A stretch of 63,675 nucleotides of DNA, filler included, from Bigelowiella natans CCMP2755 (Eukaryota > Protista > Cercozoa): NCBI GenBank assembly GCA_000320545.1. It is 6 parts of 6 records of this genome, joined end to end, with 100 filler letters (N's around TTAATTAATTAA, not from the genome) between each part and the next. Parts side by side here need not be neighbours in the genome. Positions count along the whole stretch, not along the records: positions 10,888 to 30,096 come from ADNK01002095.1; 5 more parts are not named here. One strand, written 5' to 3'. The position numbers and the translations under genes are program-made. The notes under the pieces were generated by a model that searched no databases, was not told the DNA's origin, and worked only from the letters and a program-made list of their open reading frames with translations. Positions 9,181 through 59,805 of this stretch are shown here, one piece after another (positions within the stretch are counted from its first letter, which is position 1; each line of letters opens with the position of its first letter).

Positions 9181-9680
9181 GTGAAGACGATAATATGCGT
9201 CTGTTGTTGTCCTTGAATGGTGATGCAATATATCTCTCTGCGCTTATTAGGGTGACACACCTAGACACTCTGCCACGTTAAATGGCGGTTGGCGATTGGC
9301 GTACGCGTGCACTCAAACGTTGGCTGCACCACGTCGCATATGCTATATAAAAAGCTGGCATGCGCTAGATTCAATGCTAGCTAGCATGGAGACCACGGCG
9401 GGAGCTGCATACTAGTACATGCGTGTCATGCTGTGAGCATGTTGTCGACGCGTCAAATCGAAATACAGTAAATATTAGCCATGCTGCGCTTGGATTGGCG
9501 GTTCCTTCTGCATATGCAGGACCATCATCAGCAACAACTGACAACTCTGGATACGCTTTTAATGGACAGAAAGTGCAAAAAATGGATGAATATGCAGCGT
9601 TTGTATCACTGCTGTACCTTCTGAACATCTTACCAGCAGCCGCATGGGCGTTTTTGGTCTTTTCGCAGTGGCTCATCGTG

Positions 9681-10887: not shown

Positions 10888-11069
10888 CTAACCCTAACCC
10901 TAACCCTAACCCTAACCCTAACTTTAACCCTAACCCTAACCCTAACCCTAACCCTAACCCTAACCCTAACCCTAACCCTAACCCTAACCCTAACCCTAAC
11001 CCTAACCCTAACCCTAACCCTAACCCTAACCCTAACCCTAACCCTAACCCTAACCCTAACCCTAACCCC
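10888..11069. repeat. Telomeric (CCCTAA)n array at the start of a contig, i.e. a chromosome end
   Basis: About 30 CCCTAA units with one irregular patch near 10918-10927. C-rich strand on + at the contig 5' end, which is the orientation expected for a left telomere. Confidence 0.95.
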
Positions 11070-12076
11070 AGAAAACAGCATGAGCGTGCCGCATCAGCAG
11101 TGCCATCAGGCCACGTGTTCGCTTCGAGCTGAAACCCGAGCTCATTTGCACCGCCAAAAAGCAGCAGGAACCTTGCCTCTGATGGTTTCATCAATGAAAC
11201 TTCGCTTTCAACTGACACTTGGTGCTGCCACAGGCTGGGACCATCCAACTTGATGGTGATTGATGTGTGCAAGCTGCTGGTCCCTGACCCCAATCCTGAT
11301 CCTGACCCTGACCCCAACCCTGACCCCGAACCCTGACCCGAACCTGACTCTGGCGCCAACTCTGAATCTGACCCCCAACCTGACCAGTTTTTTCCTCCAA
11401 TTTTTTGAAAAAAAAACCTTTTTGAATTTTTGTCACCAATTTTTCCAACTTGGACATCAGTTTCGACCGTCATTGCCACCGCCAATTGTTTTTGAATCTG
11501 GTCCAGAACAGAACCCCGCCAACCCTGACCCCATGCCCAACGAACCCTTTGTGGTTGCGCCAGTTGCAAGTGCAGCATGGCCAGTGTGCTTCTTGATGAT
11601 TGTCATTCACACACATGCACCCACTTGCACACTCACGTGCACGCACGCACAATCTGTGAAACCTTGGTCAATTTTGACAAAGGAGGTCAAACATGTTTTT
11701 GTGTCGTTTGTTGCATGTCAAAATCGGGCTTTCAGTTTGCCATGACACTCTCTGGATGATCAAGGCTCATGATTGTTGCAATGGAAGTTTTTCAGATGCA
11801 ACCTGGTGTTGATCATGATCACATCAAAGAGCAAAAATGCATGAAGCCTTGGATCCAAAGGACTTGTTTTGGACGATGCAGCACGGGGCTCACGTGCAAC
11901 ACAACATTGCACACGTTTTTTTTCACATTGCCATGTGACGTGCGCAATGTGCAATGCTCCACCTTGTTGCACTGCGTGACGCATGTTGCACCACACCAAA
12001 CGCACTGAAACAATCGTTGAAATTCACAGACTTCATCCACAATTGAGTTCGATTCACATGTGAAACTCTTCTGAAA
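11065..12076. other. Subtelomeric TpA-free zone containing degenerate telomeric repeats
   Basis: No TA dinucleotide between 11065 and 12076; CCCTGA/CCCCAA units at ~11282-11385 and ~11515-11540. Confidence 0.9.
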
Positions 12077-12108
12077 TAATCTTCTTTGCATGCACATCAC
12101 ATTCTGAA

Positions 12109-12839
12109 CTAAACGCCTTGCGATTTCTTTGAACTACCTCTCCGATGACGTCTGCTAGCTCCAAATCTATGAATTTCACCTATTGAACCTTCAGCACGGC
12201 GATTTGATGAAGGATACACAGTAGTTGCTAGATATTGGTTGTAAAAATCAGAGTGATCTCCAGGCACAAAAGGCACCAAAGTGTCTAGGCCATTGGTGTG
12301 GGTGTAATACTCATCGTCAGCTCCACGCACTCGTCGCTTCGAATGCTGAAAAAGCAAATTGAGGTCCTTCTTCAGAGTTGAAGAGGAACGAGTATAACGT
12401 ATATATGTGCTTCCAGAGCCCATTATCGCTCCCAATCCTTGAGCGTTCTTCCTCCTCTTTTCTTCATCTGAACTAGATTTGAGGAGCTCACGGAGATTTT
12501 CATCCTTTTCAAAACCACTGCTACGACTGCGAAGTAACTTATGATATTTGCTGTCCTTATTTGGAAGTTCTCGCATGGGCCAAAATTCGTACCTGGGAAA
12601 GACAAAACCCGGAAAAATTAATCAAAGAATTGAATTTTAATTCTAGAATTTACATTGAGGGAACGTATGAGATGAAAGGAAGTAAAAAATATAGCAAGTA
12701 AAATTAGATATTACGATTGGCCTAGATTTTCCTTCATATGGTGGTACATCATCTCTATATCTTTTCTTTCTTTCATTTAGTCGCTATTCCTTAGAATACG
12801 TCGTTTGTGTTTATTCCCTTTTTTCTTATTTTCCTTTTC

Positions 12840-12875
<36 letters not shown>

Positions 12876-13372
12876 ATCAACGCTATTATACTCACTGAAA
12901 TTCGTCTCCATCTACGATGCACCACTCCTCTTCTTGATCCTCTTTTGTCTGTTCTTCTGTGTCTTCATTTTCTTCCGATTTGGCTTCTTCACAATTGGCG
13001 CTATACTTGTCCTTACTATCCAGCTCATAGCCTGGTTTTCCCTCTTTCTTTTCCAACATCGTCTTTTTGGTTAAAGATAAACTCATCATTCATCATCATC
13101 ATCGTAATGGTGCTGCTTCATCACTATCATTATGCTTGTACCGACTCGATAGAAGTCAAGTAGAGAAGAAGTGGTAGTGGTGAAGAGTAATTATTATGAA
13201 TGAGAACAATCGTTATGTGTGTGTGCATTTGTGCGTGTGTTTATATATATATATATATATATATGTATATGATTATGAAGATTACTAAATTCCGACTAAT
13301 TCTTAATTATCACCTCAACACTAGTTCCTACTACAACTACAACCAACTACTACACACAAGTGCCCCCCCCCC

Positions 13373-13412
<40 letters not shown>

Positions 13413-13778
13413 ACCACCTTCCTTCGTCCGTTTTTCTCTCCAGACGACTTCCCTGTCTCAAAGATGCTGCTGCCAACACGCCGCTTAGTACTACTGTTGA
13501 TATGATTATTCTCGAAAACCTTGTCATGGATAAGGTGTTCCGATAAATCCAGCTGTTGTTTTGTCCAAGAAAGGTATTTGCGAAATATTCGATGATCAGG
13601 GTCATTAGAGTGATAATAATACGATGATGATGACGATGATAAGGAGGAGGAGGTGCGCTGCCTAGAACCACGAGGAATGTTGTTTTTCATTGAAGATCTT
13701 CTAATTTTATTATTATTATTGCCACTGCCACCTTGTCTTGTAGATCTACCACCACCACCATTACCATCACCAGCACTT

Positions 13779-13815
<37 letters not shown>

Positions 13816-14117
13816 GATGATTGTAGTAGCTATTTTTCATTGCCTTTCGCTCACCACCACTAGCATTAGTATTTTTGTAGTGGTTAAGATGATAATTCTT
13901 TTTACTACTACTACTACTGCTGCTGCTGTTATCTTTGACGGTCAGCAGGTGGTTTGTAGTAGAGTTTCTAAGATGATCCTGGTGATGATGATGATCATCT
14001 TTTATGTTGCTTCTTACGCGGTGATCGGATTGCTGCTGCTGCTGCTGCTTCTTCTGGTAAACGTCGCTACCTGAACCTAACTCTGATTCTCCTCCCCCTC
14101 TTTTGCTACTGTTAGTG

Positions 14118-14152
<35 letters not shown>

Positions 14153-17100
14153 CGAAGTAGTGATAGTAGAGGAAGCTGTTGTAGACGATAATACGGGGGG
14201 GGGAGAGGGATGCGGAGAAGGATGACGACCGTTGTGGGAACCAGATTTATTCGTTATCTTTTGTTCCATTCCACTCTCCCTCTCCTCTTTATTTCGCACC
14301 TCCGCTGTTCCTGTATTATCATTTGTAGTAGTAGTAGTAGAGCCGGGTGGTGATTCTACCACCTGCTGCTGCATCGTCGAGTTGTTGTTCGTCGATGACG
14401 TGGTCCTTGTTGCTGTTGTTGATGATGATGGAACCAATTGTGCCTTCTCCTCCTCCCCCTCCTCCTCCTCCTCCTGCTGCTGCTGCTGATGCTGATGCTT
14501 TACTCCTTTAAGTGTAGAAGAACCCGCCACTTGTTGCCGCCGCTGCTGCTGTTGGTAAGAACGTATTATTCTTGATGAAGAGAAAGATGTGATTGTAGAT
14601 GACGACGAGGAAGACAAGGCTCTCATCCGCCGGCTAGATCTTCGACTGCTGCTGCTGCTGTGCGTAGTAAATAGTCCAAGCACTGCTGCTCTGCCTCTTG
14701 CTTCTTGCTCCTCCGCAACTTGAATTTCTGCCCAACGATGATCCAAATGCTTTAATACGTAGTGGCTGGGGAGTGCTAACCGATAATGAAGATTTGCTGA
14801 CCATCTTCGATGATCTTCATTATCACCATTGTTACCAACCCCCCCCCTCATCATCATACCGATTCGCTGTTGCTGCTGTTGCTGATGATATGTATATGAT
14901 GATGAATATGATAGAGGAAAAGCAACATTACTACTGCCTAACCCTATCATTCTCCCTCCTCCCCCTCCTCGTCGCGAAGTAGACGACGCCAACAACGATT
15001 TTGGTTTGGATCCTCTGACCCCTACTACATTGGCATTACTACGTTTACCACTACTACTGGTCAGACTCCCGTTTAGTTTTTGTAATGACGATGATGATGA
15101 AGAAGACGATGTAACTAGTCGTCTTCTCCCCCCAGTAGTGATTATACCACCATCTCTATTATTTGTCGGTGGTGATATTGATAGCCCGGCTGCTGCAGTG
15201 CTGCTGCTGTTACTACTACCACTAGTAATGTTGTGTTTCGTAAGAGCACCACTACTACCATTTATACTACTACTACTACTTACCCCCCCCCCACCGCTCA
15301 TGATTCCACGAGAAGACGACGACGGTGGTGGTGGTGGTCCAACAATGCGGTCATTTGATACTGGTGCTACAGAATACCCACTATTACTACTACTGCCTCC
15401 TCCTCCTACTCCTCCTATTCCACCAGAGACAGTTCTCTTTAGAAGTCCTCCCCTTCTTCGTTGCAGCATGCGTTTTCGTTGTCTCAAATCATTTCCTGCT
15501 ATCGTGGTGTGCACTATAGCAAATGTACTACCAGGTTTTAGCATCACATCAAAAGAAGAAAGAGAAGATGAAGGATATACAGCACGGAACGAGTCAAATC
15601 CCTCTTGCATATCCTCAAATTCATTTGGATCTACTTGGTTTGCATTATTCTCCTCCTCCTCCCCCTCCTCTATTTGCTTGTTGACATTCTCGTTTTTACT
15701 ATTATTTTCATTATTATTATGATTATCGGAAGGAACCGCAGAAGTATTACAAATTGGTTCCTCCTCCTCCTGATTTGGTGGAAGCTCAATTCTGAGTTTT
15801 TTTGGATTTGACCGTTTTCTTTGATAACTATTGCCGTTGTCACCATCATCTTTGTCCTTCTTTTCCTTTTTTCTATTATTATTATTACCATTATCCTCCT
15901 TCAGAAGCAGTAACTTTCTCATTCTCCGACTTCCAACATCCTCTTCCTCATAAACTGTAGAGGGCAATTTCAACGCGGTTGGGGGAGGGGCATTTGGATC
16001 CAATTCCTTCTCATAGCTGTGGATTGGTTTCTTCCACCACTCAAATTCCAAGAAGCTCCTTTGCCCTATTTGCTCGTAAGTCCCAGGCTTATCGTTATGG
16101 AAGTAGTAATCTGAGTTCAGTTCCCACAAATGTACCGCCGCATCAAGTTTTTGTAACTCTTTTTGCCAGTGAGCACGTTCTTGTTGCATTTCCCACGTTT
16201 CTTCCACAGATGATGATGTTGATCCCCCAATGGAGGATAAATTGGAAGATGCCTTACTTTTCTTCGATGAAGACGGGTTGAAAGCACCGCGAAACCATTG
16301 ACCAAGTCTCGAGAAAGCACCTGCCCCTCTCCTCCTCCTCCCTGAAGTAGCACCACCACCACCACCAACTCTTTTTTTATCTGATGGTAATGAAGAAGAC
16401 GACTTGACGTCCGCTCCTCTCTTCCCGCCGCTTGTTGTTGTTCTTCTAGTAGTAGACTTTGTCGTAATACTGCGACCTTTGTTTCTTCCATTCTCGATGG
16501 CAGCAGCAGCAGCAGTAGCAGATGATGATGATGATGATGATGATACTACTCCAGATACAGCAGTTGTTGCTGCCTTCCCAACTATAGTAATGTCCCTCGA
16601 TTTGTTGTTCTTACTACCACTACCTTTTCCAATTCCTACATCTTCTCGGCGGCTGTCGTCTAAAAACCGCTGTTTCGCTTTTCTTGTTTGAGCAGCAATG
16701 GATTCCTCGTCACTATCTTCCTCGCTACTATAGTGTTGTTGATCATCGTTTCTTTTTCTCTGCTGCTGTTTCAATGATGATCCGTTATCATCCTTCTTAT
16801 CACGCGTAAAGCTCAGATTATGCGCCACCGCGCCAAAAACTCGGAGTCGTCCTCTTCCTCCTTCCTTTTTTCTATTGCTACCGTCCCCAGCAGCAGCCTT
16901 TTTTCCATCCTCCATTTGACCACCACCACCACCACCACTAACCCTTCTTCTTCCTCCATCTTGTTCGTATCGTAGTACTGCATTATTCCTAAGGAAACGA
17001 ATTACTACGGTGAGCTTCCCATCTTTCTTCGCCTCGATGAGTGCTTCTTGATACTCATCAAGTGTTTTTACCACTTTGCCACTGATAGCATCTATTACCC

Positions 17101-20100
17101 ATCCTTTCTCGACTCCCACTTCAGAACCTTGGCCTATTTCTTCTACTGATGCAACTTGGAGGGGTGATGGACGGGGGGATACGAAGGGGTTGTTGCTGCT
17201 GCTGCTGTCGTTATTATCATCATCATCATCATCATCAACACCATCCTTAGTAGTAGTAGTAGTAGTAGTAGGCTCATCATCTTGTGCTGCACCATCGTCA
17301 TCAGTGCTTTTGTCGCTGTTCTTCTCATTATCCAGGCTCTGTCCCCCCCCTAACCCCCCTTGTTTTTCTACTTGTTCTACTAGTAACTGGCCTTGCAATT
17401 TGAAACCAAATGGCGCATCGGTAATGAAGCGCTTCGTAGTTGAAGCTAGGAAGATGGCGTTCGTGCTGTTGTTCTTGTTGTTGTTGCTTGTTGTCGTTTT
17501 CTTCTTGTCGATAATTTTCCTAATCTCTTTGCCTCTCTCTCTATCACCGACTTCAGGACTGATCGATGTTCCTGCTGGAGGCGGAGGAGGGGGGGCATCT
17601 TGGGGTGACCTCGGGTCTTGATGATAGTCGTCTTCTTCTTCCCTATCTCCTTCTTCCTTTTCTGATGATGATGGGTTGCTGCTGCTACCTATTTTATTTG
17701 AAGTCTTCTTTGTTGTTGTTGTTGTTGTTGTCGTAGTCGTAGTGGTACTACTACTAGTTTTTGTCGTCGCTGCTTGTTCCTCGTGTTTTTCTTGGGAAGA
17801 TGACGACGACGACGACGACCATAGAGGGTTGAAATTGAGAGGAGTTGGCTGGTACAATCCTAAGAGGAGGTTAAGTGCATCCTGCTTAATATTATCTTGG
17901 CAAGTGTTTTGGTAGTGCCTCATAAAAGCGATCATCATTTCCTTCGTTTTTGGTCTCGCCCTGTGGTGATACAAGACTGGCGACATCGTAGCAGAAGCAG
18001 TCTTGTCGTTTGCCATTTGACGATGCATCTCAGAGCCTCCGTACTGCATAGCAATACGATCTCCCATTCTTTCGTACATATCGAGTAACACTGGAATGAC
18101 CCTAGCGTCTCTCTCCAAACGGGGGTGTAAGGCCATGCCTAAACCATACAGTTGATAGCCCAAAGCACACTTCCCAACACAAAACTGAGCCACGTTTGTC
18201 CTATCAAGAGAGTCGATGCAATTCACACGTAGGACACCTCTTTGTCGGACACAAACATTAGGCTCTATTTTTGCTTTTGATCTTTTTTTTCGAGTAGCGG
18301 CATTGTGCTGATGTTCATTTCTATGGTTATTCATTTTTTGGGAAGACGAATGCTGTTGCTTCTGCTTAGTAGTTTTATGGTTATTATTATCATCATATTG
18401 CAGCGATTGATCTTCACGGGGAGATGGAGAAGGAGGGATAACATCGCCAACCTGCGAGAACTTTAATCTAGGTGTTTTCGCCTCGGTCCCAAAGAGATGT
18501 AACCCCTTTGCTGCTGATGATGACGAACCCCCCGTTCCCCCCCCCCTTCTTTTATTTGCTACCCGAAGTTGTTCTCTTTGCAGGCGCTGAAAATCTGCTG
18601 CCGATGCAAAGGTGTTAGCTCTCCGAGTATTTCTTTTGCCATTGCTTGTACTTCCATCTCCAGCAGCAGCAGCAGCAGCACCACCAACATACTCATTGTT
18701 TTCATCATCGACGATATCATCATCATAAATGACTGGAAAAGCATTGGTATCGTAGCTCCAAAGCCATCCAAATTCCTTTGGACTTGTGGAAAGTCCTGGT
18801 TGTAAACAAGGTGCTAGATCGTAACGAGATAGTAGTAATGCTGCTGATGATGCTGATGATGATGGTGTAACAAATCGTCTGACACCACGAGCTCCGGCTG
18901 CTGCTTTCTTTGCTAGTTTTCTTCGTCTTGCTGTTGCTGCTGCTGCCACGTACCCGTCTACACCATTATTCTTAATACCTGACCCCCGAAACCCTCTCGA
19001 TTCTTTTCCACCCAATGATGATGATGATAATGATGACAGTGTACGATGATCATCATCGTCATTATCAGCACCGTCTCCTTTTTTGCTGGCAAGATGATCT
19101 GGATTAGTAGTAATAAGACCCGAATAGCTACGTCGCTTGAACATCCCTTCTTCTTGTTCTTCTTCCTCGTTGATGGCCACATTGTTGTTACTGATGTTGC
19201 TGCCATCAGTATTGCTTCGAAAATTTGATGATGATGTTGTTGGCACCAACGCCTCCCCTAGCCAGCCCAGTAAGCGAGACACACCTTTTTGCTGTTGTGC
19301 GGCAGCAGCAGCAGGGGTTGGAGTCTTTAGCATCCGATGATGATGATGATGATGATCATGATGCTGATTTTGGTGGATCGAGGGAGACGAGTGATGATAA
19401 TGGGAAGTAGAAGAAGGGGGAAGAGGAGTAGGGTTAGGCGTAGGTGGTTTTGGGTAGTAGTTGCTATTTTGGTGTGGGTTAGGCGTAGGTGGTTTTGGGT
19501 AGTAGTTGTTATTTTGGTGTGGGGGGTTAATGCTGCTACCACCGATAACGTTACTACTTTTACTACCACTACTGCCACCCCCATCCCTACTTGTGAAAAG
19601 GGAAGGTTGGTTGTCGTAGTAGCCACCACCACCACCACCGCCACCTCTGGCGCTCCTAGTATTATTGTTATAATAATTGCTGTTGCTGCGATTGTTGCCA
19701 CCGCCAATAAAAACGTCGCCTTTTCTTTCTCTCTTGAAATCTCCTCCTCCACTACTTCTGCGTCGTGTTCGTCGGCCTCCTTCTTCTTTTTCCTCAGAGC
19801 CAGGATAGAGTAATCTCGTAGGACCTTCTCCATCTCCGCTCACATTGCTGTTAGTAGTGCTACTGGTGCTGCTGCGACCGCCCCTTCTCTTATTATAGTC
19901 TTGTTGATCATAGGAATAGTGCGCAGACGAAGTTGATTCTTTACCGTTGATAAGATGTAACTTATCGTTTTTCGAAACAACGGAGAGGCTCACGGTGTCT
20001 TCCGGGTGTCTCTCGATAGCGCCTGGTAAAGGATGGGAACAGAATACGCCATTTCGCTGTATTGCCCACTAACAAAAGAATGACATGACAACGAACGACG

Positions 20101-22340
20101 GTTATTGATCTGATTATGAACAAGCGAAGAGAATGCAGATGGTAATGACCTTCGTTTCTTTCTGTATCAAGATTGACGACAGACTACGACAAATAATACA
20201 ACATCTCATCTTTCTCTTCCTAGTACTACCTGTGCGATAATGGCGAGTTCGTCCATTACGTTAGATTGAAGAGAGTTTGCTGTTCTCTTGTAGTCCCACG
20301 CCAAATAGGCAATCTTATGTTCATCAGGTAAGAAACGATTGAGGAGCTCAACAGTGGTGCCAAAACGACGGCCAATGATTGATTCCCTGGGTCTCTTTTC
20401 GTGCTGACGAACGAGATTTACAGCAATCACAGGAGACCCATATCTCCTGAATAGATCAGCAAAATGTCTCCCAGTAGTCAGCCCCAAGGGATCCTGTTTC
20501 TGCAGAACAATTTCTGGTTTTGCGACCATCTTTCGTCCTTGCTGCGTCCAGAAGAGGGGAATGGAGGCTCTGTTCTGTACATAAGATGAATATCTTCCTG
20601 TACCAATTTGGTCCACGGAAACCCTATCGAAACCATTCACGATTTGTTCGACCTCAACATCATTGGCCACCTCTCCGCGATTTGAGACACCGCGCTTGAG
20701 GTACCTTGTCCCAGCAAAGAGCCTAGACCTCCTCGCAATAAGAGTAAGTGCTATTTGCCTTCCGAAGACACTGCAGCATGTTTGTTCAAAATAGCCATGG
20801 ATGAGGTTTAGATGCCATCCAGGGTCTTTCACACGCTCTCGCAGTGCTTGCTGCAGGAAGGAGTTCCATATGTAACGACTACGTGGTGATCGTTGCTTGC
20901 CGGCGTTAGGTTCTGGTGAATGAAGTCCCTTCCTCCCATCTGCCCCCGTCGTGACTATCTTGGGTGCTCCATCTACAGCAGGTACGCCAACGGGCTTATC
21001 CGCATTAACCATGTTATATTGCATCGTACGGGTTAGATCATATGTGTATGAGTAGTAGAAGTCTTGCTTCAGTTGGATCAAACAGAATAGTCTTGTGTAT
21101 CTCGCTTCGATGGAGCGAGATTGCTTATTGTGGACCGAATTTGGAGCTCGTTCATACACACATGGATTAGTAAGAGGGACGATCGCCGTGTCTTGTACTG
21201 ACCATATGATATGGCTACCGAATGTCCCTGCTTGCCTCCTTGCCGTGATGAGAATCAGATAATGGCCATACAAGAAACGCACAAACCCGATAATCCCAAA
21301 AGCTGTTGCAATCTTCATTAAACCACCAGTGGATGCGTTACCTTCCTTGACCATCATCATCATCTGGTTGATCTCTGCACGAGTGTAGGAGGTTGGATCC
21401 TCTCTAATCTCAAGTTCAGGCGTCATACGATCGACTACAAGTAACTTGCATTCGTTACCTGTGCGGTCAATGCCAACTATGTAAAAACGAAGCGATGTAC
21501 GATATACCTAATATATTAAATATTACAAGCAAGGAACAAATTCAAATAATCGACCACCTTTCACCGGAACGACTTTTCCCTCCCAAAATATACGTAATGT
21601 CAAGCACACACCACGACGAATTGCACAGAAGATGACTAATATCACCTCAAACTGCTGGTACTTTCTAAGTAGCGGAGGCAATTTTACGGCAGTATGTCGT
21701 TGTTGCCTTGTTCTAGCCCCCCCCCCTTTTGCTTCTACTTTTGCATCCTCGCTGCTCCCCCCTGCCCCTTGTTCGGCATCTGTTGGGCTCCTGCCCACTC
21801 TCTTTGGATTATATTTTTCCGAGGGTTGAGTCGTGCGTGGAAGATGAAGCTTATACCTGATGGCCAGTAGGAGAAAAAAATTAATAATTTGAAAATTAGC
21901 ACAAATATATTACGAGTGCATCCCTAAATGTCCTTCAGCATAGTATGCTTATATGTGAGTTTACATGGTATTTTTTGCTACCGGTGTAGTTATTATGTTT
22001 GTATACTACGTTGCGAAATCAGTGCCTTCGAATACAACGGTGGCATCTCCAGATATTCGCCGTAGAATTCCGGACCGAACTAGTTTTTTCCCTGATGTCA
22101 TCAGTGAAATATGAAATAAATGTGGAACATCAGGGTAATGTGAATAGTAGGATTTTCTTTGCATGCTAGAGCTTGCTCATGTATGTGCTACTAAGAAGAT
22201 TGGATGGGATATCATTATGCCCTCTACGGTGCAACAAAGTAACCTAGAGTAATGGCTTCTTTGTGATCTTTGGCAAAGCTACTCTCCAGAAAAAATTTGA
22301 CTGCCCGAGAACCGCGGAAGCATCCACCTGTATCCTCGGG
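12109..22340 (-). CDS. FIG4: FIG4/SAC3-type phosphoinositide phosphatase, greatly expanded, with N-terminal DEP and internal PDZ-like domains; multi-exon, true start further 5' uncertain
   Basis: SAC domain motifs FYYSYTYDLT, RRSRLFAGTRYLKRG, VANDVEVEQIV, SSYVQNRASIPLFW, catalytic CX5RT (RVNCIDSLDRTN), GDRIAMQYGGS, KQDALNLLLG and the FIG4-type HLWELNSDYYFHN. The last two exons (~13065-12897, 12595-12109) splice in frame; their link to the giant exon is inferred. Confidence 0.9.
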
Positions 22341-22817
22341 GATTCTGATTAAATGTCCCAACGAGTGATTCGAGTCATGCTTCGACCCAAGTAAGATGAT
22401 TAAGTTGTGCAATGGAGTTCCGTATTTTTTCTTCCTTTTTGCTGTTTATAAAATCTAGTGACTAAAAACTGACCGTTCGCTCTGAAGATGGGTCAGAAGT
22501 TCATTGGCAACAACAGAAAGGTTCGGGAAATCCATTCCGAATGAATGAATCCACCTTGTGGAACCAACAGAGGGGGGGTGGATTCTGACTCCCTCCGATA
22601 TATTAATCAGAGGAAAAGATTGTAAAAATAATAAAGCGGCCCCAAGATTGCTTTGACCATTTATTCGGAGAAACAACATGTGATTTTCAAAGTGGATGTT
22701 GTCTCAAGTTAGAAATTCCATGAAATTTGACGAACAATTTCCATGGATTTTTTACTAGGATTTCAGGATTTCTCTTTTAAGACTAACAAAATTTTGCTAA
22801 CAAAGTTTTAGAATTTA

Positions 22818-23078
22818 CTAGATCTAGATCTAGATCTACTCGAAAACTTTCGTAGATCTAGGTCTAGATCTAGATCTAGAAACAAAAGAAAACATGCGAC
22901 ACACAATGAATGAATAGTCTAATAGCATATTATCATAACTACCTACTCTTTCCTACTACTACTGATCGACTAGACTAGGAACATACCAACTCCTACTAAT
23001 CGACTACTGTTATTAACTACTCTTTCCTATTACTACTGATCGACTAGACTAGGAACATACCAACTACTACTGATCAAC
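22818..23078. repeat. (CTAGAT)n palindromic hairpin followed by a 74-bp-period tandem duplication
   Basis: ctagatctagatctagatcta-ctcgaaaactttcg-tagatctaggtctagatctagatctag at 22818-22879; ctactctttccta.tactactgatcgactagactaggaacataccaact at 22943 and 23017. Confidence 0.85.
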
Positions 23079-25271
23079 GATCATGGGGAATCTCATCCAC
23101 ATCATTGGCTCAAGACCACCTAAGTTAAGGCACCCCCAAGAAAAAAAAAAGGTACTTGGACAGAGTAGTCAGAAGATGAATGTGCATTTTTGGTGGGAAG
23201 GTGTGGGGGGGAAGGAGCATTGAGCTCTTAGTTACTCAAGCAAAATGCAATGATGAACAGTTATTTGATGAGCTCGATAAGGATGGCACAGGTGACGATA
23301 ATCATTACTTTGAGCATAGCCAATAGACCTGAAGCACTTTTTGGGATATCCCTTTTGGGGTGTGGTTAGGCTTTATTGGAGTTCCGAAAATTCGCGACTT
23401 TGTTATCCGTGAACTAGGTTTGTTCGTCTACGAAGAAGGCGTTTAACGCGCGTGCATGCATCAATGTGTATACAAGATGGCCGAACATATGATAATTATA
23501 TAGATTATATGAATGGGTGCTGTACTCTCATGTTTATCGTTATCAGCGGTCGTATTGTTTCGTGACGACGACCTTACCCGATTTTTAAACACTGAATGGT
23601 ATTTAAGTAACCTGATATACTCTTGCATTCTCGCACCTCCCTTCCCCCAAAAGTTTTGTGACTTTTGTTCATCCCTTCCCTTCTTATGTAATCTCTCATA
23701 ACTGACTTTCCAGAACATAAATTGCTGCTGCTATGATCTCATCTAGGGGTAACCGACGAACAGGCCGGCTTCATAGTGCATCAAGCCGGTATTATTGTAA
23801 GTATTTACCTATGTGGGAATATAATATCACTCACTTTTAATTCATAATGAGTACGACAGCAGCAGTCCGTAATTCGTAGTAGTACTGCTATCTTTGTGCA
23901 ACTTTCAATTATCACACCCATACTATAGTCACAGTCAACGAAAATTGCTGCGCTCTGTTCTCTCGACCATCTCCCCACAATCTTCATCTACTCCCTGTGT
24001 TCTCGTCCCCACTCCATTTCATAGCCAAAATTACTCTTTGTGTACTGATTTCGTTATTGTTTTTTGTTGCTGTGGTGTTCATTAGACTCCAACACTGATC
24101 ACAAGGTACCATTTCTTTTGCTTAAAATGTGTGGATGATGCCGTCATCCTGCATAAGAACAATATAGTTTGTACAGCGTGTAAGGGAAACGCAACGTCCC
24201 ATTTCCCTCCCCGTCATCCTGCATAAGAACAATATAGTTCCCACACATCAACTCCCTCTTCCACAGATGAACTACGAAGAATTCAATGAGCTCTTGGCTA
24301 GATTTGAACAGGCGAATTCCCTTGTTAACGAAGAGGCTGTACTGCGCACATATATGCACGGCACCACTCAAACACACACACACACACACACACACATGCA
24401 CACATGCACACATATGGTATAGGCAGATTGGTGATAGCAGATTCGAAACATAGACAACGACGCTGCCTGGAAATATAAGCTATTATTTCCCATCACCTTT
24501 CCTCCTTTGCCGTTGTACTTTGCATTTCCTTATTCTCTCTCATCTTCTTAGCATCAATTACTTGGTAATTTCCTGCTGTGCGGCTGCTGCTGCTGCCTCT
24601 GCACATTGGGTTTGGTAATATAGATGCTGTCATTTTCGAACATAACTTTGAGAAGTGTCTGTTGGGTAGTGAAAGTTGAGTTTCTGCTATAAATTTCCGA
24701 GTAAGATTCCCAGGACCAGTTCTGGGGGAAACACACTCGTTTGCGATGTTTTTCTCCAGCAGTGAATGACTAGCAGCCTGTAGCAGCAGAATTTGTCTTG
24801 TTGTACCTTTTCATCTCCTTTCGAACGCCATTTTCTCCAATTTAATTATCGATCGTACTCTTGCTGTATGCTCATGAAGTTGCTCTGTGTTTGCTGGGGT
24901 TTTCTTCTTCTTTTTCTTCTTCTGTTGTAATAATACTCAAGTCATGGATCCCACTCTGTTGTTATCACCACGATCATCAGTCTAAAGTGAACAAAAAGGT
25001 CACATGCATATGGTACAGCAGCAGCCACGATGAATGCATTCTTCTTGCGACTACTGCAAGCTCATGACCATCGTCTGAACTATGAACGAAATTGGCCGAA
25101 ATATTCGGGTCTTCTCCCTCTTATGATCTCTATGGTCGTTAGGAGTGACCTGCATGATTGTGTGCCACTCGTATCAGTACCGGGCTGGTCCGCAGTGCTG
25201 TTTCGAGCACCTTTGGGCTTCTTTCTCCCATTCCCCCTCAACATTTTCAACATGCAATGTGCATTGTACAA

Positions 25272-25310
<39 letters not shown>

Positions 25311-25729
25311 TTTTGTTGTGTGTGCTGATTTCCCCCCCGTTCCCCCCCGTGTCGTGTTGATGCATCTTGTGCATGTTTGCAACACACAGATTCTGGAATA
25401 CAAGAAAGACTAGGCATGATGACACGAGCAGCTTCGATTCAGAAAAAGATTTTTTTTTCATCTGAATTGTTTGAACACGACATACACATCCACATTGCTT
25501 GTCCTAGATTCACCGCATGAGAATCATTTGCAGTCCATTGCAATTTCATGTTGACAAAGAGCTACGTGTCTATAATCTACGTGCCTGTGATGAATGACTG
25601 CGGCACATCGTGACTACGCGTACGCCTACGCTACACTGCACTGCATGTACGTCGCACGCATCATGCTAGCATGCTCGATGTGTTGTTAAATGACGAACGA
25701 GGAAAATGTTTCCATTCTTGTGTGCCACG

Positions 25730-27060
25730 TGGATGGCTAGAAGTTGAGTGCCTGGAGCGTGTGACACACACAGCTCACTTTTTCCGCCGATTTTCGTGAC
25801 AAAAACATTGCATGTTGAAACAGCAGTTCATCAATGATGATGACATCATTGTGGGTAGGTTGGTGTTGAGCTCCCCTGCTCTCTCACACAGCCCCCCTGC
25901 ATCGTGCGAAAAGCTAGCTGTGCTTCGATCCATATGATCGACGATCGTGATGGACCATTGCTGGAAAATTTTCAATTCATTGGGTGTGCGCAGCACTGTG
26001 CTGGCATGCTGCATCGCAGCGTGTTTGGCTGTGATGCTGCAGATCGACGCAGGCTTGCGGCTTGCGGTGCACATGCTAGCTGCATGCAAGAAACGTCGTG
26101 TGATGCATGTTGGCGCTTGCATGAGATGTGGATGTTCATGGCGGCACACATTGCGCTGTGTTTCCACAATTTGATGCAAACAACGCTGATAAGCTCCGAG
26201 CTAGAATCAAAGTGCAAGCATTGCCTGCTGTGCCACACGCCGCACTCCCTTGTTTTGTTGTTCCTGCATCACATCCCTAGCATCCGTCTCAGGTGGCATG
26301 CACACGTCGTGCATGCTGGCATGATGCATGCATGTGATGTGTGTGATGAAGAGTTGTTGATCAAATCTTTCCAATTCTCACATCGTGATCTAGCCATGCA
26401 AGGCAGCGCGGCTGCATGCATGTGTGCGTAGCTGTGCTAGCATTTCACCATTCTGCCATTGCACATCGCGTGCATCACTTTGTCTCTGTGTCAAACAATT
26501 GTGTGCACTCACGCGTGTTGCACGCATGCGAACAATGAGCATGTCGCATGGACACGTGTATCTCTGCACGTGCTAGCGTGCACCACCGGCCGTTGAGCAC
26601 ACATGAGCTGTGCATCTGTCGATGCAGATTGCAATCACGCGCATGTGCGCTAGCATGCACGTGTGTGGCTAGATGGACATGCATTTCTCTGCAGCGTGTG
26701 TCGCGAAACAGCTCATTGCTTCGCATCATGACTTGATGCGATGCCGCCTAAACAACCTGCTGCACGTTGCGCGCACCGCGACAGACCACTTTGATGGCAT
26801 CGAACGTTTCATCGTACGTTGCGCCGTCACGCCGTTGTTCTCGTCTAGCTAGCTACTAGTAGCTAGCCTAGCAAAAACATTCGCAGAGATATTGATCCAC
26901 TTTGCCCGCACATTGTCACGCTGCAGTGCGGTTCACTAGTGCATGATGGACATGCAACATGATGGACATGTACCACATTGCTGTGTCTATCATGTGCATG
27001 CGCATGAACACATCGCTAGAGCGGCAGACAACAAGTCATGCATTTCGCACCTCGATTCGT
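25730..27060. other. TpA-depleted, CpA/TpG-rich intergenic block; residual TA mostly in CTAG
   Basis: About 29 TA in ~1.33 kb, about 17 of them in CTAG (by-eye count). Confidence 0.85.
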
Positions 27061-28899
27061 TTAATGTCATTTTATAATTCTCGCTCGATTCTCATTTCCT
27101 GTGATGATTTGGCATGCGTGTACTGTCAGCAGCGTGAGCGTTGCGATTGATCGAGCACAGATGGCTGTTCCGCAGTGGGGGGCACATCGCTCATCGAATC
27201 AGCATCAGCATGCCAGGTCTCCATGCAAGTGAATTTCAGGCATTGCTCAATTGAATGTCCTCTGGAGAATTATAAAAATACATCACGTGTGCACGCGGGA
27301 CTAGAGGTTCTGCAAAATTAAAAGGCCTTCTCCAATGCAGCTAACATCTTCAACTTAGATGTTCAAGAGCATCACCGTGCTTGCATTAAAAAATTGCAAG
27401 ACGAAATTGACCAATTAAATTAATAACATAAACCCTCTATGTTTGTTGAGATACGATGTCATAGCGACATTGCATCACGATGTTTGTAAATAAACTCAAT
27501 TAACTTTCCCCAGCAAAATACAAATAGCCATGCTAACACCATTAGTATTTTCTGAATGATGGTTCCAATTATGATGAAGAACCTGAAGTAGTAGTAGAGA
27601 TAAGAAGAAACACGAGTGTTGCTAGTTAGGGTAATACTCTAGATTATAATTATGATAAAATAAATGATAATGTTGATGATGATGAAATTGAACAAGTCGA
27701 CGATGATTGGATAGTAACGTTTACCAACGACACTGACAACTAATTTCTTATCCGTGAAATTTATTTATTTTATGTCCCTCCTTTGTCAATTGATGTTCAT
27801 ACATAGTACCAATAGAGAATCTTGTTCTTGGAAAAATATCGTCTGTTTAGTTAATTTTTTAATATCAGTTCAGAATCTTATTTGGTGGAGTAAAATACTG
27901 GTTGGCTAGTTTTTTTTTGTTCTAATATGGTTGTATAGTAAAATAAGCTGCGGAACTATAACGAGCATAGCAATACACTACACCAGTTGTAATCCATGAT
28001 ATAGTAGTATTGCTATATTGACTACGAGGTAGCATATTAAATCAATGTCAGTCAATTGCCTATTTAGAGCTAGAATCACCTGCATTTTACGACTGTGCGT
28101 TTTATACCGCAGAAATAGTTTTCAGATGGTAGTTGTCTGAAGGAGACCGCAGCATTCGATAATTGAAATAGTGATGACAAATTGTATTTAATAACGCTTT
28201 GTATGTATGAATCATCGTACTACAGCTAATGATGGTGATACTATCAAAACAGCAATTCGACTAATTATCACTAGTCATCATCACCACACCATCATACAGA
28301 TAGTTGTTAAAATTTATGAAAGTTAAATCGTAGTACTATAATTATAATTACTATTATTTTTATTATCATTAATGCAACCACCTGTATTCTCTACACGTCA
28401 GCATATCCGGCAAATCAGTCATTATTTCTTTAATTGGTACTGCGAGCTCTGATCTGCTCACATTCAAATCAAGAATAACTTAATCACAACAGAGAAGAAA
28501 GGCAAGAGGGAGGAGAGGAAGAAGAAGAAGAAGAAACCACACAGCACACAGCACACACAGCACACACACACACACACACAAACCTGATTGGCTGATGCGA
28601 CCAGTAGCAGGACCCGAAAAATAGGAAAACGATAAATAGAACCAACCTATTATTATACATACAACGAATAACAATAATAATGATAATTATAATAATTATA
28701 ATGATAACAATAAATTGAGAAGATCGAACAACATCCTTCGATAATAAATAATAGTTACAATTATACTAGTAATAACAAATTGAGAAGATCGAATAACATT
28801 CTTCGCAAATAATTTACAAACATGTACCGTAGTGTATTGATAAAATATAAGCTAATTACTCTAGCATTGTTTAACAAACTACTCAACTAATAAAATATA

Positions 28900-28933
<34 letters not shown>

Positions 28934-29094
28934 CTATTTGCTATATGGCTCTGCTAGATGATAATGTGGTCTTGTGATTTTATTCGTCGGTTCCTTCATT
29001 GTAACAACTTACATATACGACAGGAGGGCTAAGATTGCTTGATCGTAATCAGTACCAATACTTGCACTGTCTGGATGTTCTCCCTAGAAGTAGA

Positions 29095-29133
<39 letters not shown>

Positions 29134-29474
29134 AGTGAGGAGGAAGATAGAGGATTGATGTACAGGTGAGGAAGTTGCTGAGCTCTTGGAGATGAAGAAA
29201 CAAATAATACGAGTTGTCAGAGTGTGTGATTTTAGTAGTGTAGTGTTCCTAGTAGTAGTATTTGGTTATAGTAGTAGTATTAGGTCGTTCTTACACATGA
29301 AAGCTGGAATTCTCTTGCTTCATAGAACATTATACAAATCCCTTTTAATAATAAAAAAAAGGAGATGGGAGGAGGGAGAGGGAGGTAGTAAAGTATAACT
29401 TATAATACAATTCATTCAAGGATTATGGTAGTTTAGTACCCATAAGAACAACAGGGATCATGTATTGCTGCAGC

Positions 29475-29519
<45 letters not shown>

Positions 29520-29842
29520 AGAAGGAGGAAAGAATGTTAATATAGTAGTAGTGCAATTTAGAGAAAAATAAAACTTGGTGAGAGAGAAATAAGCTGATTA
29601 TATACTACTGTTAAGGAATGTGAAATTCAATCCAATTTTAGGAGTAACTAGTAACGATTATGGAGCGACTGCTTAAATTGTATGCACAGTAACACACACA
29701 CACACATACACATACATATTATATAATGTATATAGTAATCGTGCTGACTAAAATTATGCCGCATAATCACACTTTCTGGTATTTTTCCCGCACACGAAAA
29801 TAATACGTTCGAATATACTTGCCTTCTCCTAATCAATGGGTA

Positions 29843-29877
<35 letters not shown>

Positions 29878-30096
29878 TAGCAGTGAACAACAAATGTACT
29901 AGCACAATTCATAAATCCGATAATCTCCAAGGAATTAGTCATTAGTAGCCAAAAACAAATGATGGGTGGATGGAGATTACTACTACTTCTTCTTCTTCTA
30001 CTACTACTATTACTACTACTCATCACCCATCTACTTGGCAGATACTCTGGATGCATTCTATATGATTGTTGTACAATTATGTCAAATAAGGAGGTG

Positions 30097-39417: not shown

Positions 39418-39739
39418 AACGAATGTAAACACGTGCTCGTGGTCTGACGGGTTGTAGCATGCTGTGGAAGTGCATTAGAACATCACACCTTGCTCATCTT
39501 GCACGCAGGTTAATGTGGAGTACGGCGAAATCCCAAGCGACCCTAGAGAAAGTAGGAGTTTCTCAGTTCACGGCAATTGATGAGTCATTGACCCGGCATA
39601 GCCTTAATGGCTCTGCCATGTACACCCTGTTAGGACATGTGTGCTTTAGGACACATGTGAGATAGTTCAGTCTATATCAGGTATGCTTCAGAACACATGT
39701 GCGTCTAGTATACATGTGTTGCATTTACATGTTAATCAA

Positions 39740-39770
<31 letters not shown>

Positions 39771-40049
39771 TTATATATGCTATTACTGTGTCTTTATTTC
39801 ATCCTATTTGTCCCTATATATGCTAATACTATTTGAGTAGTCATCGCTGTACTGCTAACAACCCGCGCACGCATATTCTCCCGCTTGCTGCGCAGCTGCA
39901 TTTTAAGCGCATTCGCATCTAGATAACAACCAGATTGCATTGATTTTTTAATTGTAGCTAGCGCTATTACAAAATGTAATCTTATGAATCTTAAGTCCAT
40001 TTCCCTCAAGCTTAGCGCTATTCCCGCCGGACCTTGCTAGCTTATTAGA

Positions 40050-41270
40050 ACATTGAAAGCCAGCCTCTTTGTCATCTCACGATGTGCTGCATGGCGCGGG
40101 CGAGCGACAGAGAATCTCTCGGATGACATGGGGCATTGTGCGCACAATGCACACATGAGACGAATGTCAATGCGGTGATGTGGCTAATGAACAATGCAAG
40201 GAAAGGTGGTGGTTACGCAAGGGCCACACAAAAGAGCCTCACATGCATGAGACGGATGTGATGAAGAATTGAATTTTTTCAATGGTCATCCTGATGTGGC
40301 TGTGCAATGCAGCGGCTGCAGCGCTGATGTTGCATCTGTTGGTTTCTGCCACCACGTGCTTCATGCATTCGAAAGCGTCCTCATGCGACCGATGTTGCCG
40401 CGCACTGCGCGCAGCAGTTCTGGAGTCCTTTTCAGCTTTTGTCAGCCGGTTCGTGTCGTCGTTGCGATTCATGATCGCGCGCATTTGATTGCGCAATCTG
40501 ATTTGTTCTCGACTGTGTGTTGGACATTGCAGGAGATGATCCATGTCCTTCAGGATGCCACATGCATCGCACGTGGCATCTTCCTCCGTGCATTGTCCAC
40601 GTGAAAACGTGAATTTTCCAAGATTGCCGACACCACAGATGGCGCGCATCCATGGTGTAGCAACACTTGGAAGTTTCAGTTTGATGCCGGTGATCGAAGA
40701 TGACGGGAGGAATCCAAGATTCTTGAGATGCACAGCGCGCAATGAACCATTGGACCATTCCTCTTCGAATTCGTTGAAAGCACAGGATTTCATCACCTTG
40801 TGATGTTTTTTCAGTTCTTTTTTCAGCGCCTCTGTTGTCGCCAAAACGGTGGGCAATTCGTCGTCTAACAAATCGTCAGTGATCGATTTGAGCCGACGAA
40901 ACAAGGATGCTTTGTTCCACGCATTTGTGGACACATCAATCCACGATGTGCCATCTAGCATTTTTCGATTTTCAATGATGAAGTCACAACTGCTCCAATC
41001 ATTTGTTCCTCATGGATTTGAGGACCGCTGCCTGTGTCGATCCACGCATCAGTGCGCAACCATGATTTAGCACACTGCACTTCAGTTTGACATCGGGGTG
41101 GCAACGTGCCAGTGAGGACGTGGGGGACGTCGTTGGAGATGGATCCAGGTGATCCCAATGCACGTTTCAGGGTTTGGGATTCCATGGAATCCATCTGTTT
41201 CATTCGCATGTTTCTTCGTGATCTCCACATAGGAGCTGCGTATCTGCTGGATGCAAGGAACCATGATTTA
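40050..41270 (-). mobile_element. Degenerate 5'-truncated non-LTR retrotransposon (LINE ORF2 3' part), TpA-depleted
   Basis: Post-RT segment ESQTLKRALGSPGSISND..LTG..P..KSWLR (40955-41230), a frameshift, then a C-terminal CCHC knuckle CDACGILKDMDHLLQC. No Tyr in either ORF. Confidence 0.72.
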
Positions 41271-41356
41271 CAAAATTTTTAATTTAGCCTTGTACACACA
41301 TGTGTACACATCACATGTGTACATATGTGTACACATGTGTATATGTGTATGTGTAG

Positions 41357-41615
41357 GCTTTTGAATGCATGAAATACATAGTAGAAGAGGCAAATATATA
41401 TAACATGAGCACTGTTGTGCCGCTGCTTTGCAAAGCTACATCTGGTTGACTGTTAAAAACACTTAACCACTTCATTACATCCGTCTCATATGCTGTTTGA
41501 TGCATAAAACACACCATAGTGGAGACAAATAATAGGTATAACATAAACAATATGCGCGCTGCGCATAGCTACAATGACATGACTATTAAAAAGATTTAAT
41601 CACTTCATTACATCC
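41357..41615 (+). repeat. Two tandem ~130-bp fragments homologous, in inverted orientation, to the LINE ORF end at 40242-40376
   Basis: 41357-41492 (gcttttgaatgcatgaaatac...ttcattacatccgtctcat) and ~41497-41615 align with the reverse complement of 40242-40376. Confidence 0.85.
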
Positions 41616-41795
41616 TCAACACAACATTTAATGCGTGCTCGTCAAAATAAATAAATACAGAGTGTACCAAATTAGCGCTTTAGCCAGCTGCCGCTTGGAA
41701 AATTCCGACTCGGATTAGCAATCGTCGTCCTTAATGCATTCCATCCAGCTCCAGAGATCATTGTCTAATCCCGAAGTCGGAACAATCAAATCATG

Positions 41796-45050: not shown

Positions 45051-45759
45051 CTGCTGTCAGGATGAAATGCGACGAGATGTTGTGTTTTATCAATAGAAAA
45101 TGAAGATGTACTGAAAAGAAAATTAAGATGACCGGATATGATCGTGATGTAAGACGGATGTAATAAATTAAATAAATTTGTCAATGGACATCCTCATGTA
45201 GCTGTGTAATGATCGTGATGTCACATTGTAGTCGTCATCTGACAGTTACATACACGCTAGCACGCATCATAACAGAGCTATGCTAGCTATGGCATGTTTT
45301 ATGTGTATTATTATACATGCCTAGATGCGTTGACGCAATAGCAACATAAAAATGACACTGTAATCATGCCATCTATACATCTGATATTTCTATAAACAAG
45401 CTGGTTGCGGTAAGGCAGTGTGCGCGCGCTTTAATGACACAGCAGTGAGTTTAGAATAATAACGACAACATGCTGGCTATATAGCTAGCTGGAAGCACAT
45501 GTACATTATTTCCAAAGCTAGAATCCATCACATATGTAATTATTGTATAATTGGCTACTGTGCTTTTAAAGTTAAGCTGCTAGGCTCCCGGCAGTGCATG
45601 GCTAAGCTACGTGCATAGCATGCATGCTGAACCGCATTATTACTTCAAATTTAGCTCATTGAGGCAATGGCTGACATAATAATCATTTCTGTTGACATGG
45701 GACATACGCATTGTAATAAGAGTACAAAAAGCTCTTATGAGGGAAGAGATTCGACAACT

Positions 45760-58410: not shown

Positions 58411-59805
58411 GAAGATGCAATTTTCACGCTGATCTAGTATATACTCACACTACACTTGAGTCGATCGACCAGGCGGCAGTTGATATGTATCGTTCTGTTA
58501 TTATCAAGGTTTGTGGACAGGCTACCCCGTCCGCGTTCAATATAATGAGTGGAGGAGTATTTACTTTCTACTCATCGTAGCTATGCTGCCCTTTTGCTCC
58601 AGAGCTAAGAGTCATTGGTAGCAGATGAGCTCTACTGACATTCATCATCTGATTCATCTACCCCGCCTTGTACGATGGCAAACAAAGCGAGAGTACGGTG
58701 AGTCGTAGTCCGATTCGCTTACGATGCTGAAAACTCTAGAATCAGCAGCACGAGCTCGGATATGCATAACATTTCTATGAAAACAAGAATGAGATAGGAC
58801 TCTATCTGCCTGTAAACTTCAAAACCTACGATACACTGGGTACATGCACGCACTACATTGTTCTGCGACGACTATGTACGCATTCATAAATCTTCGCGAA
58901 CGGGGTGTGTCTAGTGTGCTTACAGTACGTTACACTCGAAAAAACTCTAACACGTCGTGAAAGTGCTACGTAAGCGGCCAGTCGTGACGGCTATACGATA
59001 AGCTACTACTTTAGCCTTGCTAGCTTGGCGCAATAGCCATCACGTCTAGCGCCAGCCATTCTGCATTATAGTATACAAATGCGCCTGCACAATGCTAGCG
59101 ATGCATACTAGCAAAGCTAGAAAGGTTAATCATCGACACATTTGCAACGTGCATGCATTGGCACTTGACGGCGGATGTGATGATCTAGCATAGCTAGATA
59201 GCTAGATAGGGACTTATATACTAGTAATAAATTGTTATTATTTTCAATTGTCATCCGACAATTAGCTAAGTCGCTAGCTTTGAATTCTAGCTAGCTAGCA
59301 TTGCAGGGATTGCAGCGCCTTAAGTCATGCTTGCTAGCTTGTTTGTACATCAAGGCTATCTGACTATTAGCATGCAATCGACGTATATACGTATGTACAG
59401 GCGTCGCCGTACTAGCGTAGTCCATTGCACACCCTATAGCACCGATAACTCGCCAGAGATACGCATGCGTTTTAAACAATGCTCTGTGTGATCGTCTACA
59501 CAGGCATACCTACAAAGCGCATCATGCAACACGTAGTAATAAATAGGCACGTATTATTATTATTATTAGAAACTGTGTTTCTGCATATTTGATCGATACA
59601 TAATTGTAAGTTTTTTGGTATTTGAGATAACAGAGCCTTATTTCTATTGCAAAGCTCGTCGAGTAGAAGTTGACATGCGATTTACAAACTGCACAATTCC
59701 AACAACTTCCCCAACAGTGCCTCAATGCAGCTGTAGCTATACAAAAATGTTTGTGGGGTTGACAGATGCATCTCTGTGTGTTCTAAAGAATATCGCTCTA
59801 CATCA

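Follow-up and report, generated by a model that had tools for sequence, protein, structure and literature searches.

The question raised by this locus is why, in a short stretch of the Bigelowiella natans genome that has lost nearly all of its TpA dinucleotides, most of those that survive lie in a single tetranucleotide, CTAG. The window analysed here, meaning the whole stretch of 63,675 nucleotides with its filler, consists of six contigs of strain CCMP2755, and the TA-poor zone lies on the contig at positions 10888-30096 (ADNK01002095.1), which begins with CCCTAA repeats. Another contig encodes a topoisomerase I (47652-48440) with 99% identity to a jgi/Bigna1 protein, and the paralogues of the LINE in the window are named Bigelowiella natans proteins. 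An earlier note on this DNA had counted about 29 TA between 25730 and 27060, about 17 of them in CTAG; the exact figures are 29 and 17 (59%). In the rest of the window CTAG makes up 171 of 3548 TA (4.8%), and the CTAG share stays at or below 18% in all 590 other 1331-bp windows that hold 10 or more TA.

TpA hypermutation is known from this species: the main text of a recent preprint describes 231 de novo mutations in two viral inserts, nearly all of them TpA to TpG or CpA, and proposes as a hypothesis an ADAT-type adenine deaminase, candidate Bn78255, modelled on amphioxus ADAT2/3 (Mettrop et al., bioRxiv 10.64898/2026.01.13.699255). The zone resembles that process in species, in the change from TpA to TpG or CpA and in the silence of the DNA affected, and its dinucleotide ratios (Table 1) pass the cut-offs given in the preprint, rho(TA) <=0.43 and rho(CA+TG) >=1.52. 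Reverse-transcriptase domains occur among the TA-poor genes that it lists, and the zone carries a LINE relic. The zone differs in being shorter than the three-window clusters of the preprint, and in the nature of the target, which there is a pair of viral inserts and here a single-copy host spacer, with its 95-bp LINE relic, and a subtelomere. The main text of the preprint holds neither a flank rule nor a mention of CTAG or telomeres, matters on which its supplements could bear, and a literature search found no other paper on a flank rule.

A silent spacer between convergent transcripts

Reads and contigs were aligned to the zone at 80% likeness, with DNA depth taken from two runs. That depth is flat over the spacer, as expected of single-copy DNA, and what the spacer shares with other sequences is limited to short motifs and the LINE relic of about 95 bp. 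RNA depth inside the spacer is 0-0.24 against 1-8 in the flanks, where RNA covers 25340-25594 (plus strand, with a GT..AG intron and a poly(A) tail) and 27110-27583, the latter transcript being placed on the minus strand because its intron reads CT..AC. Since RNA is nearly confined to the flanks and the two 3' ends face each other, the zone is a silent spacer between convergent transcripts. Over 23000-30096 these two spliced transcripts have no long ORF, and they possibly represent non-coding or short-protein genes.

Table 1. Features of the TA-poor spacer and of the two comparison loci (positions in the window)
Feature	Position	Strand	Basis or properties
Comparison locus: subtelomere with zero TA, CTAG included	11064..12077		
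Last exon of spliced transcript, without long ORF; poly(A) tail after 25594	25390..25594	+	A8-tailed contig, splice junction, GT..AG ends
TA-retaining island around the poly(A) site	25500..25699		TA counts
Spacer (about 1.5 kb), single-copy and nearly untranscribed, between 3' ends of convergent transcripts	25595..27109		DNA and RNA depth
TA-erased core, 29 TA (17 in CTAG)	25730..27060		rho(TA) 0.37, rho(CA+TG) 1.88, GC 0.51
Decayed LINE 3' end, about 95 bp, family of the 40230-41278 copy	26327..26424	-	Alignment and nhmmer
(CTAG)n-like array and perfect 20-bp palindrome centred on 26857/26858; 5 CTAG and 2 other TA	26845..26872		
Motif of about 50 bp also present in 5 or more other contigs of this genome	26943..26997		
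Last exon of spliced transcript; distal 300 bp partly TA-poor (graded right edge)	27110..27583	-	RNA, CT..AC intron
Comparison locus: 5'-truncated, hypermutated LINE copy	40230..41278	-	Paralogue depth

The zone is complete in 14 DNA runs of one organism, which are possibly the source of the window, and two DNA runs show no difference from it over 2361 bp and hence no sign of ongoing mutation, a comparison of almost no power where the runs are possibly the window's own source. The search for an unmutated allele or paralogue of the zone in reads, contigs and metagenome contigs yielded none, with reads showing short shared motifs only. The two long ORFs of the zone are open only because stop codons contain TA, and they have no viral or Pfam match; the zone has no tblastn match to LINE proteins, and 22000-30096 has no Rfam match. 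A motif of the zone has no match among metagenome contigs, and one copy of the 50-bp motif at 26943-26997 reads CCAT where the window reads CTAT.

The LINE relic aligns with a score of 69 against a null maximum of 40 (12 Markov queries) and is recovered by nhmmer (E=1.2e-6); nhmmer did not recover a further match of 11 bases to the LINE end (26281-26291), which was discarded. The aligned relic shows the change from TpA to TpG or CpA directly, the evidence for the rest of the zone being compositional. One CTAG of the zone, at 26390-26393, aligns to a GTAG site of unmutated LINE copies that reads GTGG in the 40-kb copy (40296).

Graded edges had been described on both sides of the zone, and the description holds for the right one, where 1-4 non-CTAG TA per 100 bp are found over 27000-27399 (about 400 bp) and 8-12 beyond. 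On the left there is no smooth gradient, as TA is scarce at 25200-25499, where part of the sequence is a TG microsatellite, and is then retained in the island of Table 1.

Survival of CTAG relative to unmutated spacers

Because no unmutated allele or paralogue was found, survival in the zone was measured against proxies, namely the TA-rich intergenic spacers at 9185-9680, 39460-40040, 45055-45680 and 58800-59800, of which two lie between facing ORFs, one between an ORF and the LINE end, and one downstream of a RING gene. They were chosen by eye and partly for CTAG richness, which makes the choice conservative. These four intergenic stretches, together with 22750-23050, are also rich in the palindromes AGCT, CATG, TGCA and TATA besides CTAG, and carry many runs of (GCTA)n or (CTAGAT)n. 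The density of CTAG is 12.8/kb in the zone and 11.8/kb in the four control spacers, against 9.0/kb and 83.6/kb, respectively, for all other TA. The warning in the earlier note that intergenic DNA is itself CTAG-rich here was well placed: CTAG occurs at 2.8/kb elsewhere in the window and at 9-24/kb in individual spacers. A roughly fourfold part of the CTAG enrichment is thus ancestral, the spacers having been CTAG-rich before mutation.

Ancestral richness accounts for part of the signal, not for all of it. The share of CTAG among TA does not equal that of the unmutated spacers, being 17 of 29 in the zone against 32 of 258 (12%) in the controls (p=7e-8) and 16 of 74 (22%) in the CTAG-richest control alone (p=8e-4). 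When the array at 26845-26872, which holds 5 of the 17 CTAG, is left out, 12 of 22 remain (p=1e-5 against all controls, 0.006 against the richest). The products tell the same story, for CCAG and CTGG were seen 4 times in the zone against 17 expected, and the ratio of substrate to product is 17:4 for CTAG versus 12:308 for the other nine contexts. A context-blind simulation on the control spacers leaves 3.8 CTAG and 17.4 products, where 17 and 4 are observed; across 60 simulated runs the CTAG share never exceeded 0.22, or 0.43 when the richest control was the starting point.

Survival of individual NTAN contexts, compared between the zone and the control spacers, is 1.08 for CTAG, 0.45 for CTAC/GTAG, 0.29 for GTAC and 0-0.12 for contexts flanked by A or T. 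CTAC/GTAG and GTAC taken together differ from the A/T-flanked contexts (p=0.005; 0.05 without the cluster), and the zone retains no TTAA and one CTAA/TTAG, against 16 and 18 in controls that comprise twice as much DNA. Half of the other surviving TA had been said to carry a 5' C or a 3' G, and 6 of 12 do; this is no significant excess over the unmutated spacers, where 70 of 225 do so (p=0.21). The hexamers around surviving CTAG match those of the controls, GCTAGC and GCTAGA in both, and therefore imply no motif longer than CTAG.

LINE coding sequence and the subtelomere

The hypermutated LINE copy offers a comparison within coding sequence. Among the differences listed from its paralogues (40 of 144 rows), 14 of 29 are CA or TG in the window copy against TA in most of the paralogue depth. 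In this copy and its flank, 6 of 7 surviving TA are flanked by a 5' C or a 3' G (p=0.017), and 5 of the 7 survivors of the copy are of the form Y-TA-R. A related LINE from a metagenome, L001, has 3 of 15 TA in CTAG in its 3' part against 2 of 130 upstream (p=0.008); the counts for both LINEs are small, and the control is L001's own upstream ORF. That CTAG is spared inside a LINE coding region speaks for a context preference rather than a host binding site. One CTAG of the window LINE, at 40955-40958, reads G at 40957 in 56% of the paralogue depth (9 contigs), and protein P0130 has the matching L-to-P change, although this G may in part be a subfamily difference. Of the two loci that the metagenome scan for the LINE returned, L002 was excluded from use (30% identity, E=2e-4); a search of viral contigs gave no match, and one of genome contigs gave 113 candidates, none of them confirmed.

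The subtelomere sets a limit to the sparing. No TA is left in about 1008-1014 bp next to the telomere, and the terminal CCCTAA array is intact; the degenerate telomere units comprise 10 with CTGA, 5 with CCAA and 2 with CCGA (CCCTGA, CCCCAA and CCCCGA). CTAG is absent from the subtelomere, where CCAG and CTGG reach 10 per kb, about twice the background, and the ratio of CTAG to product, 17:4 in the zone, is 0:10 (p=2e-5). From this loss, and from the change of CTAG to CCAG among the LINE copies, it follows that CTAG is mutated slowly rather than being immune, or that its protection depends on the locus.

CTAG as a probable poor substrate for the known hypermutator

The explanation we favour, and hold to be rather probable, is that CTAG is spared because C-TA-G is a poor substrate for the TpA hypermutator known from B. 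natans. The spacer would originally have been AT-rich (about 42% GC) and as rich in CTAG as its neighbours. A locally recruited activity, probably with the LINE relic or read-through of the convergent genes as its seed, would then have replaced A by G in TpA on one strand or the other, spreading about 700 bp each way and fading in the transcribed exons. Exposure would have lasted long enough to erase about 90% of non-CTAG TA, with CTAG kept at its unmutated density; as CTAG reads the same on both strands, both strands would be slow, at a fitted relative rate of about 0-0.1. With long exposure, as in the subtelomere, CTAG too would be lost. The enzyme-like context preference put forward in the earlier note thus keeps its core, as the sparing survives the control for composition and recurs in a LINE coding region, but it has to be reduced by the ancestral fourfold enrichment and by the loss of CTAG elsewhere, and its single-flank form is not established. 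The sparing of CTAG is a real and apparently unreported property of a known process.

Shielding, re-creation, physical and compositional alternatives

It is conceivable, though unlikely, that the mutator is blind to flanks and that a protein bound to CTAG in the spacer, or a modified base, shielded it, or selection kept it as a regulatory site. CTAG, mostly as GCTAGC or GCTAGA, is enriched about fourfold in unmutated spacers, something that a slow mutator alone cannot yield; the sparing is total in the zone and absent from the subtelomere; and the direction of the zone's products is symmetric, all of which such shielding or selection would accommodate. Against it, CTAG and CTA/TAG survivors are enriched in LINE coding sequence, where host sites are not expected, and ACTAGT and CCTAGC survive as well as GCTAGC (non-GCTAG sites being 4 of 17 in the zone and 11 of 32 in the controls). 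DNMT6 is present in B. natans (PMC9998398), and those parts of the literature on the species that were available carry no report of CTAG modification.

About equally improbable is that CTAG was mutated and then made anew, by slippage of (GCTA)n, by correction templated by palindromes or by C-to-T change of CCAG. The (CTAG)n array and its perfect 20-bp palindrome do hold 5 of the 17 sites, and (GCTA)n runs abound in the spacers and in the flank of L001 (11 CTAG in 212 bp), so some process makes such runs. Isolated sites speak otherwise, since the 12 that remain without the array still form the majority given above, the palindrome around 8 of the 17 CTAG does not extend past 4 bp, and palindromes are of similar length in the controls. 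Furthermore, decay of CAG to TAG would refill GTAG/CTAC (35 products, 4 TA) above CTAG (4 products, 17 TA), and the mutator itself cannot make a 5' C or a 3' G beside TA. A CCWGG methylase, of which CCTAGG is the expected trace, and generic CHG decay were rejected as sources of CTAG, there being not a single CCTAGG and no stronger refilling of GTAG/CTAC than of CTAG. Both shielding or selection and re-creation by slippage are possible explanations of the initial CTAG richness of the spacers; both fit the LINE data less well than a context preference does.

A physical determinant, whereby TA with G or C on both sides opens or flips less easily and CTAG least easily of all, is very unlikely as the full account, and is better seen as one form of context dependence than as a full rival to it. 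It draws on the intermediate survival of CTAC/GTAG and GTAC, on the left edge (25230-25729), where 11 of 17 TA have G or C on both sides against 64 of 257 in the controls (p=0.001), and on the zone taken alone, in which a model of CTAG plus both flanks G or C has the best AIC. The model fits the window LINE poorly, as survivors there are CTAA/TTAG, and CTAG survives far better than GTAC. Hardly credible is a purely compositional origin, in which an ancestor was so rich in CTAG that uniform loss of TA left a 59% share, for even with spacers as CTAG-rich as these, TA lost uniformly from the richest control leaves CTAG with a mean share of 0.22 and yields about 32 CCAG/CTGG, against 0.59 and 4 observed.

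The flank that matters

If context preference is the correct reading, the next question is which base is read. The earlier note had supposed that one flanking base inhibits the reaction and that CTAG is thereby protected on both strands. In the zone, TA with only one such flank show no significant sparing, and the products, 42 CTGH and 28 DTGG, agree better with symmetric protection (p=0.8) than with a 3' G alone (p=0.03) or a 5' C alone (p=0.02), p values that depend on the controls. Survivors cannot separate a 5' C from a 3' G because the duplex is symmetric. Three tallies of direction, from which ambiguous and adjacent double sites were left out, bear on the point, and none is significant. 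Near-identical LINE and spacer copies changed 5 times through the 5'-C strand and twice through the 3'-G strand (p=0.45). Telomere-like units, which are not independent, point the same way with 10:5 (p=0.30), and the distant L001 alignment points the opposite way with 1:3. Near-identical copies and telomere units favour a 3' G as the slow side, though not significantly.

Over the three data sets, AIC is 85.6 for a free 3' base, 90.4 for CTAG plus both flanks G or C, 91.1 for one flank, 101.2 for CTAG only and 144.3 for a uniform rate; in the zone alone the context models lie close together, each beating the uniform model by more than 20 units. The free fit makes 3' G, or equivalently 5' C, the slowest class in each of the three data sets. 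If context is the determinant, both flanks or the whole tetramer have a chance approaching even of being what is read, a 3' G alone is a possibility to be taken nearly as seriously, and a 5' C alone, the least supported of the three, is improbable. Palindromy as such was rejected as the cause of sparing, since ATAT, GTAC and TTAA are palindromes too and are lost.

Relation to other editing and mutation systems

The rule differs from those described for other adenine editors. Metazoan ADARs and the ADAR-independent mRNA editing of Fusarium resemble the mutator in that A is read as G with U/T directly 5', but, as described in PMC4817773, they act on RNA and favour UAG (G ranking first at +1 for ADAR, A and G about equal in Fusarium), whereas in the zone CTAG is spared and TAG/CTA contexts are the slowest. 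Amphioxus ADAT2/3 deaminates A in DNA, as is proposed for B. natans, and the contexts given for it, GAA for A, TCG for C, and hairpin loops (PMC10354150), are unlike a strict TpA requirement with CTAG spared. The flank rule could serve as a cheap fingerprint with which to screen candidate enzymes of eukaryotic A-to-G DNA hypermutation, and it points away from preferences of the ADAR type and of fungal mRNA editing.

Fungal RIP is likewise a local, dinucleotide-specific and near-saturating mutation, in that case of repeats, which spreads into flanks and has flank preferences of its own. It changes C to T at CpA, making TpA, and needs duplicated sequence; the zone shows the opposite direction, TpA being lost and CpA/TpG gained, in a single-copy target.

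The locus adds single-copy host spacers and subtelomeres to the viral inserts as targets, and so bears on target choice. A more far-reaching reading, which we regard as doubtful, has the mutator as a DNA adenine editor guided by chromatin or RNA that strictly requires a 5' T and refuses TAG/CTAG, a rule unlike that of characterised A-to-I enzymes. Such an editor would act on viral inserts, on silent host spacers (with the 95-bp relic or convergent transcription as seed) and on subtelomeres, would shape intergenic composition, and would be shared with diatoms.

LINE ends and the subtelomeric gene

TA-rich DNA surrounds four further LINE 3'-end fragments of the window, near 41.4-41.6 kb and 45.15 kb; a LINE relic is therefore not sufficient as a trigger. 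Besides the relic in the zone, such fragments lie at 41355-41492, 41492-41616 and 45142-45251. L001 (4001-4950) is a near full-length LINE that is TA-poor only in its 3' kilobase, beyond which comes its (GCTA)n-rich flank, and it suggests that mutation concentrates at LINE 3' ends. At 40230-40330 the summed contig depth reaches about 281,000, against about 91 for single-copy DNA, with many RNA reads, and the LINE 3' end is a very high-copy short element. A second contig of 238 bp corresponds to 39845-40082 with 18 differences, at least 6 of them TA changes (5 in the other copy and 1 in the window copy); this is a duplicated spacer under partial TA mutation, and among the 11 of the 18 differences listed neither CTAG is changed, a result left out of the evidence for sparing. 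A gene for a SacI-domain (FIG4-like) phosphatase occupies 13337-21830 on the minus strand, has a 2243-aa exon full of homopolymer runs, and reaches to about 2 kb from the telomere.
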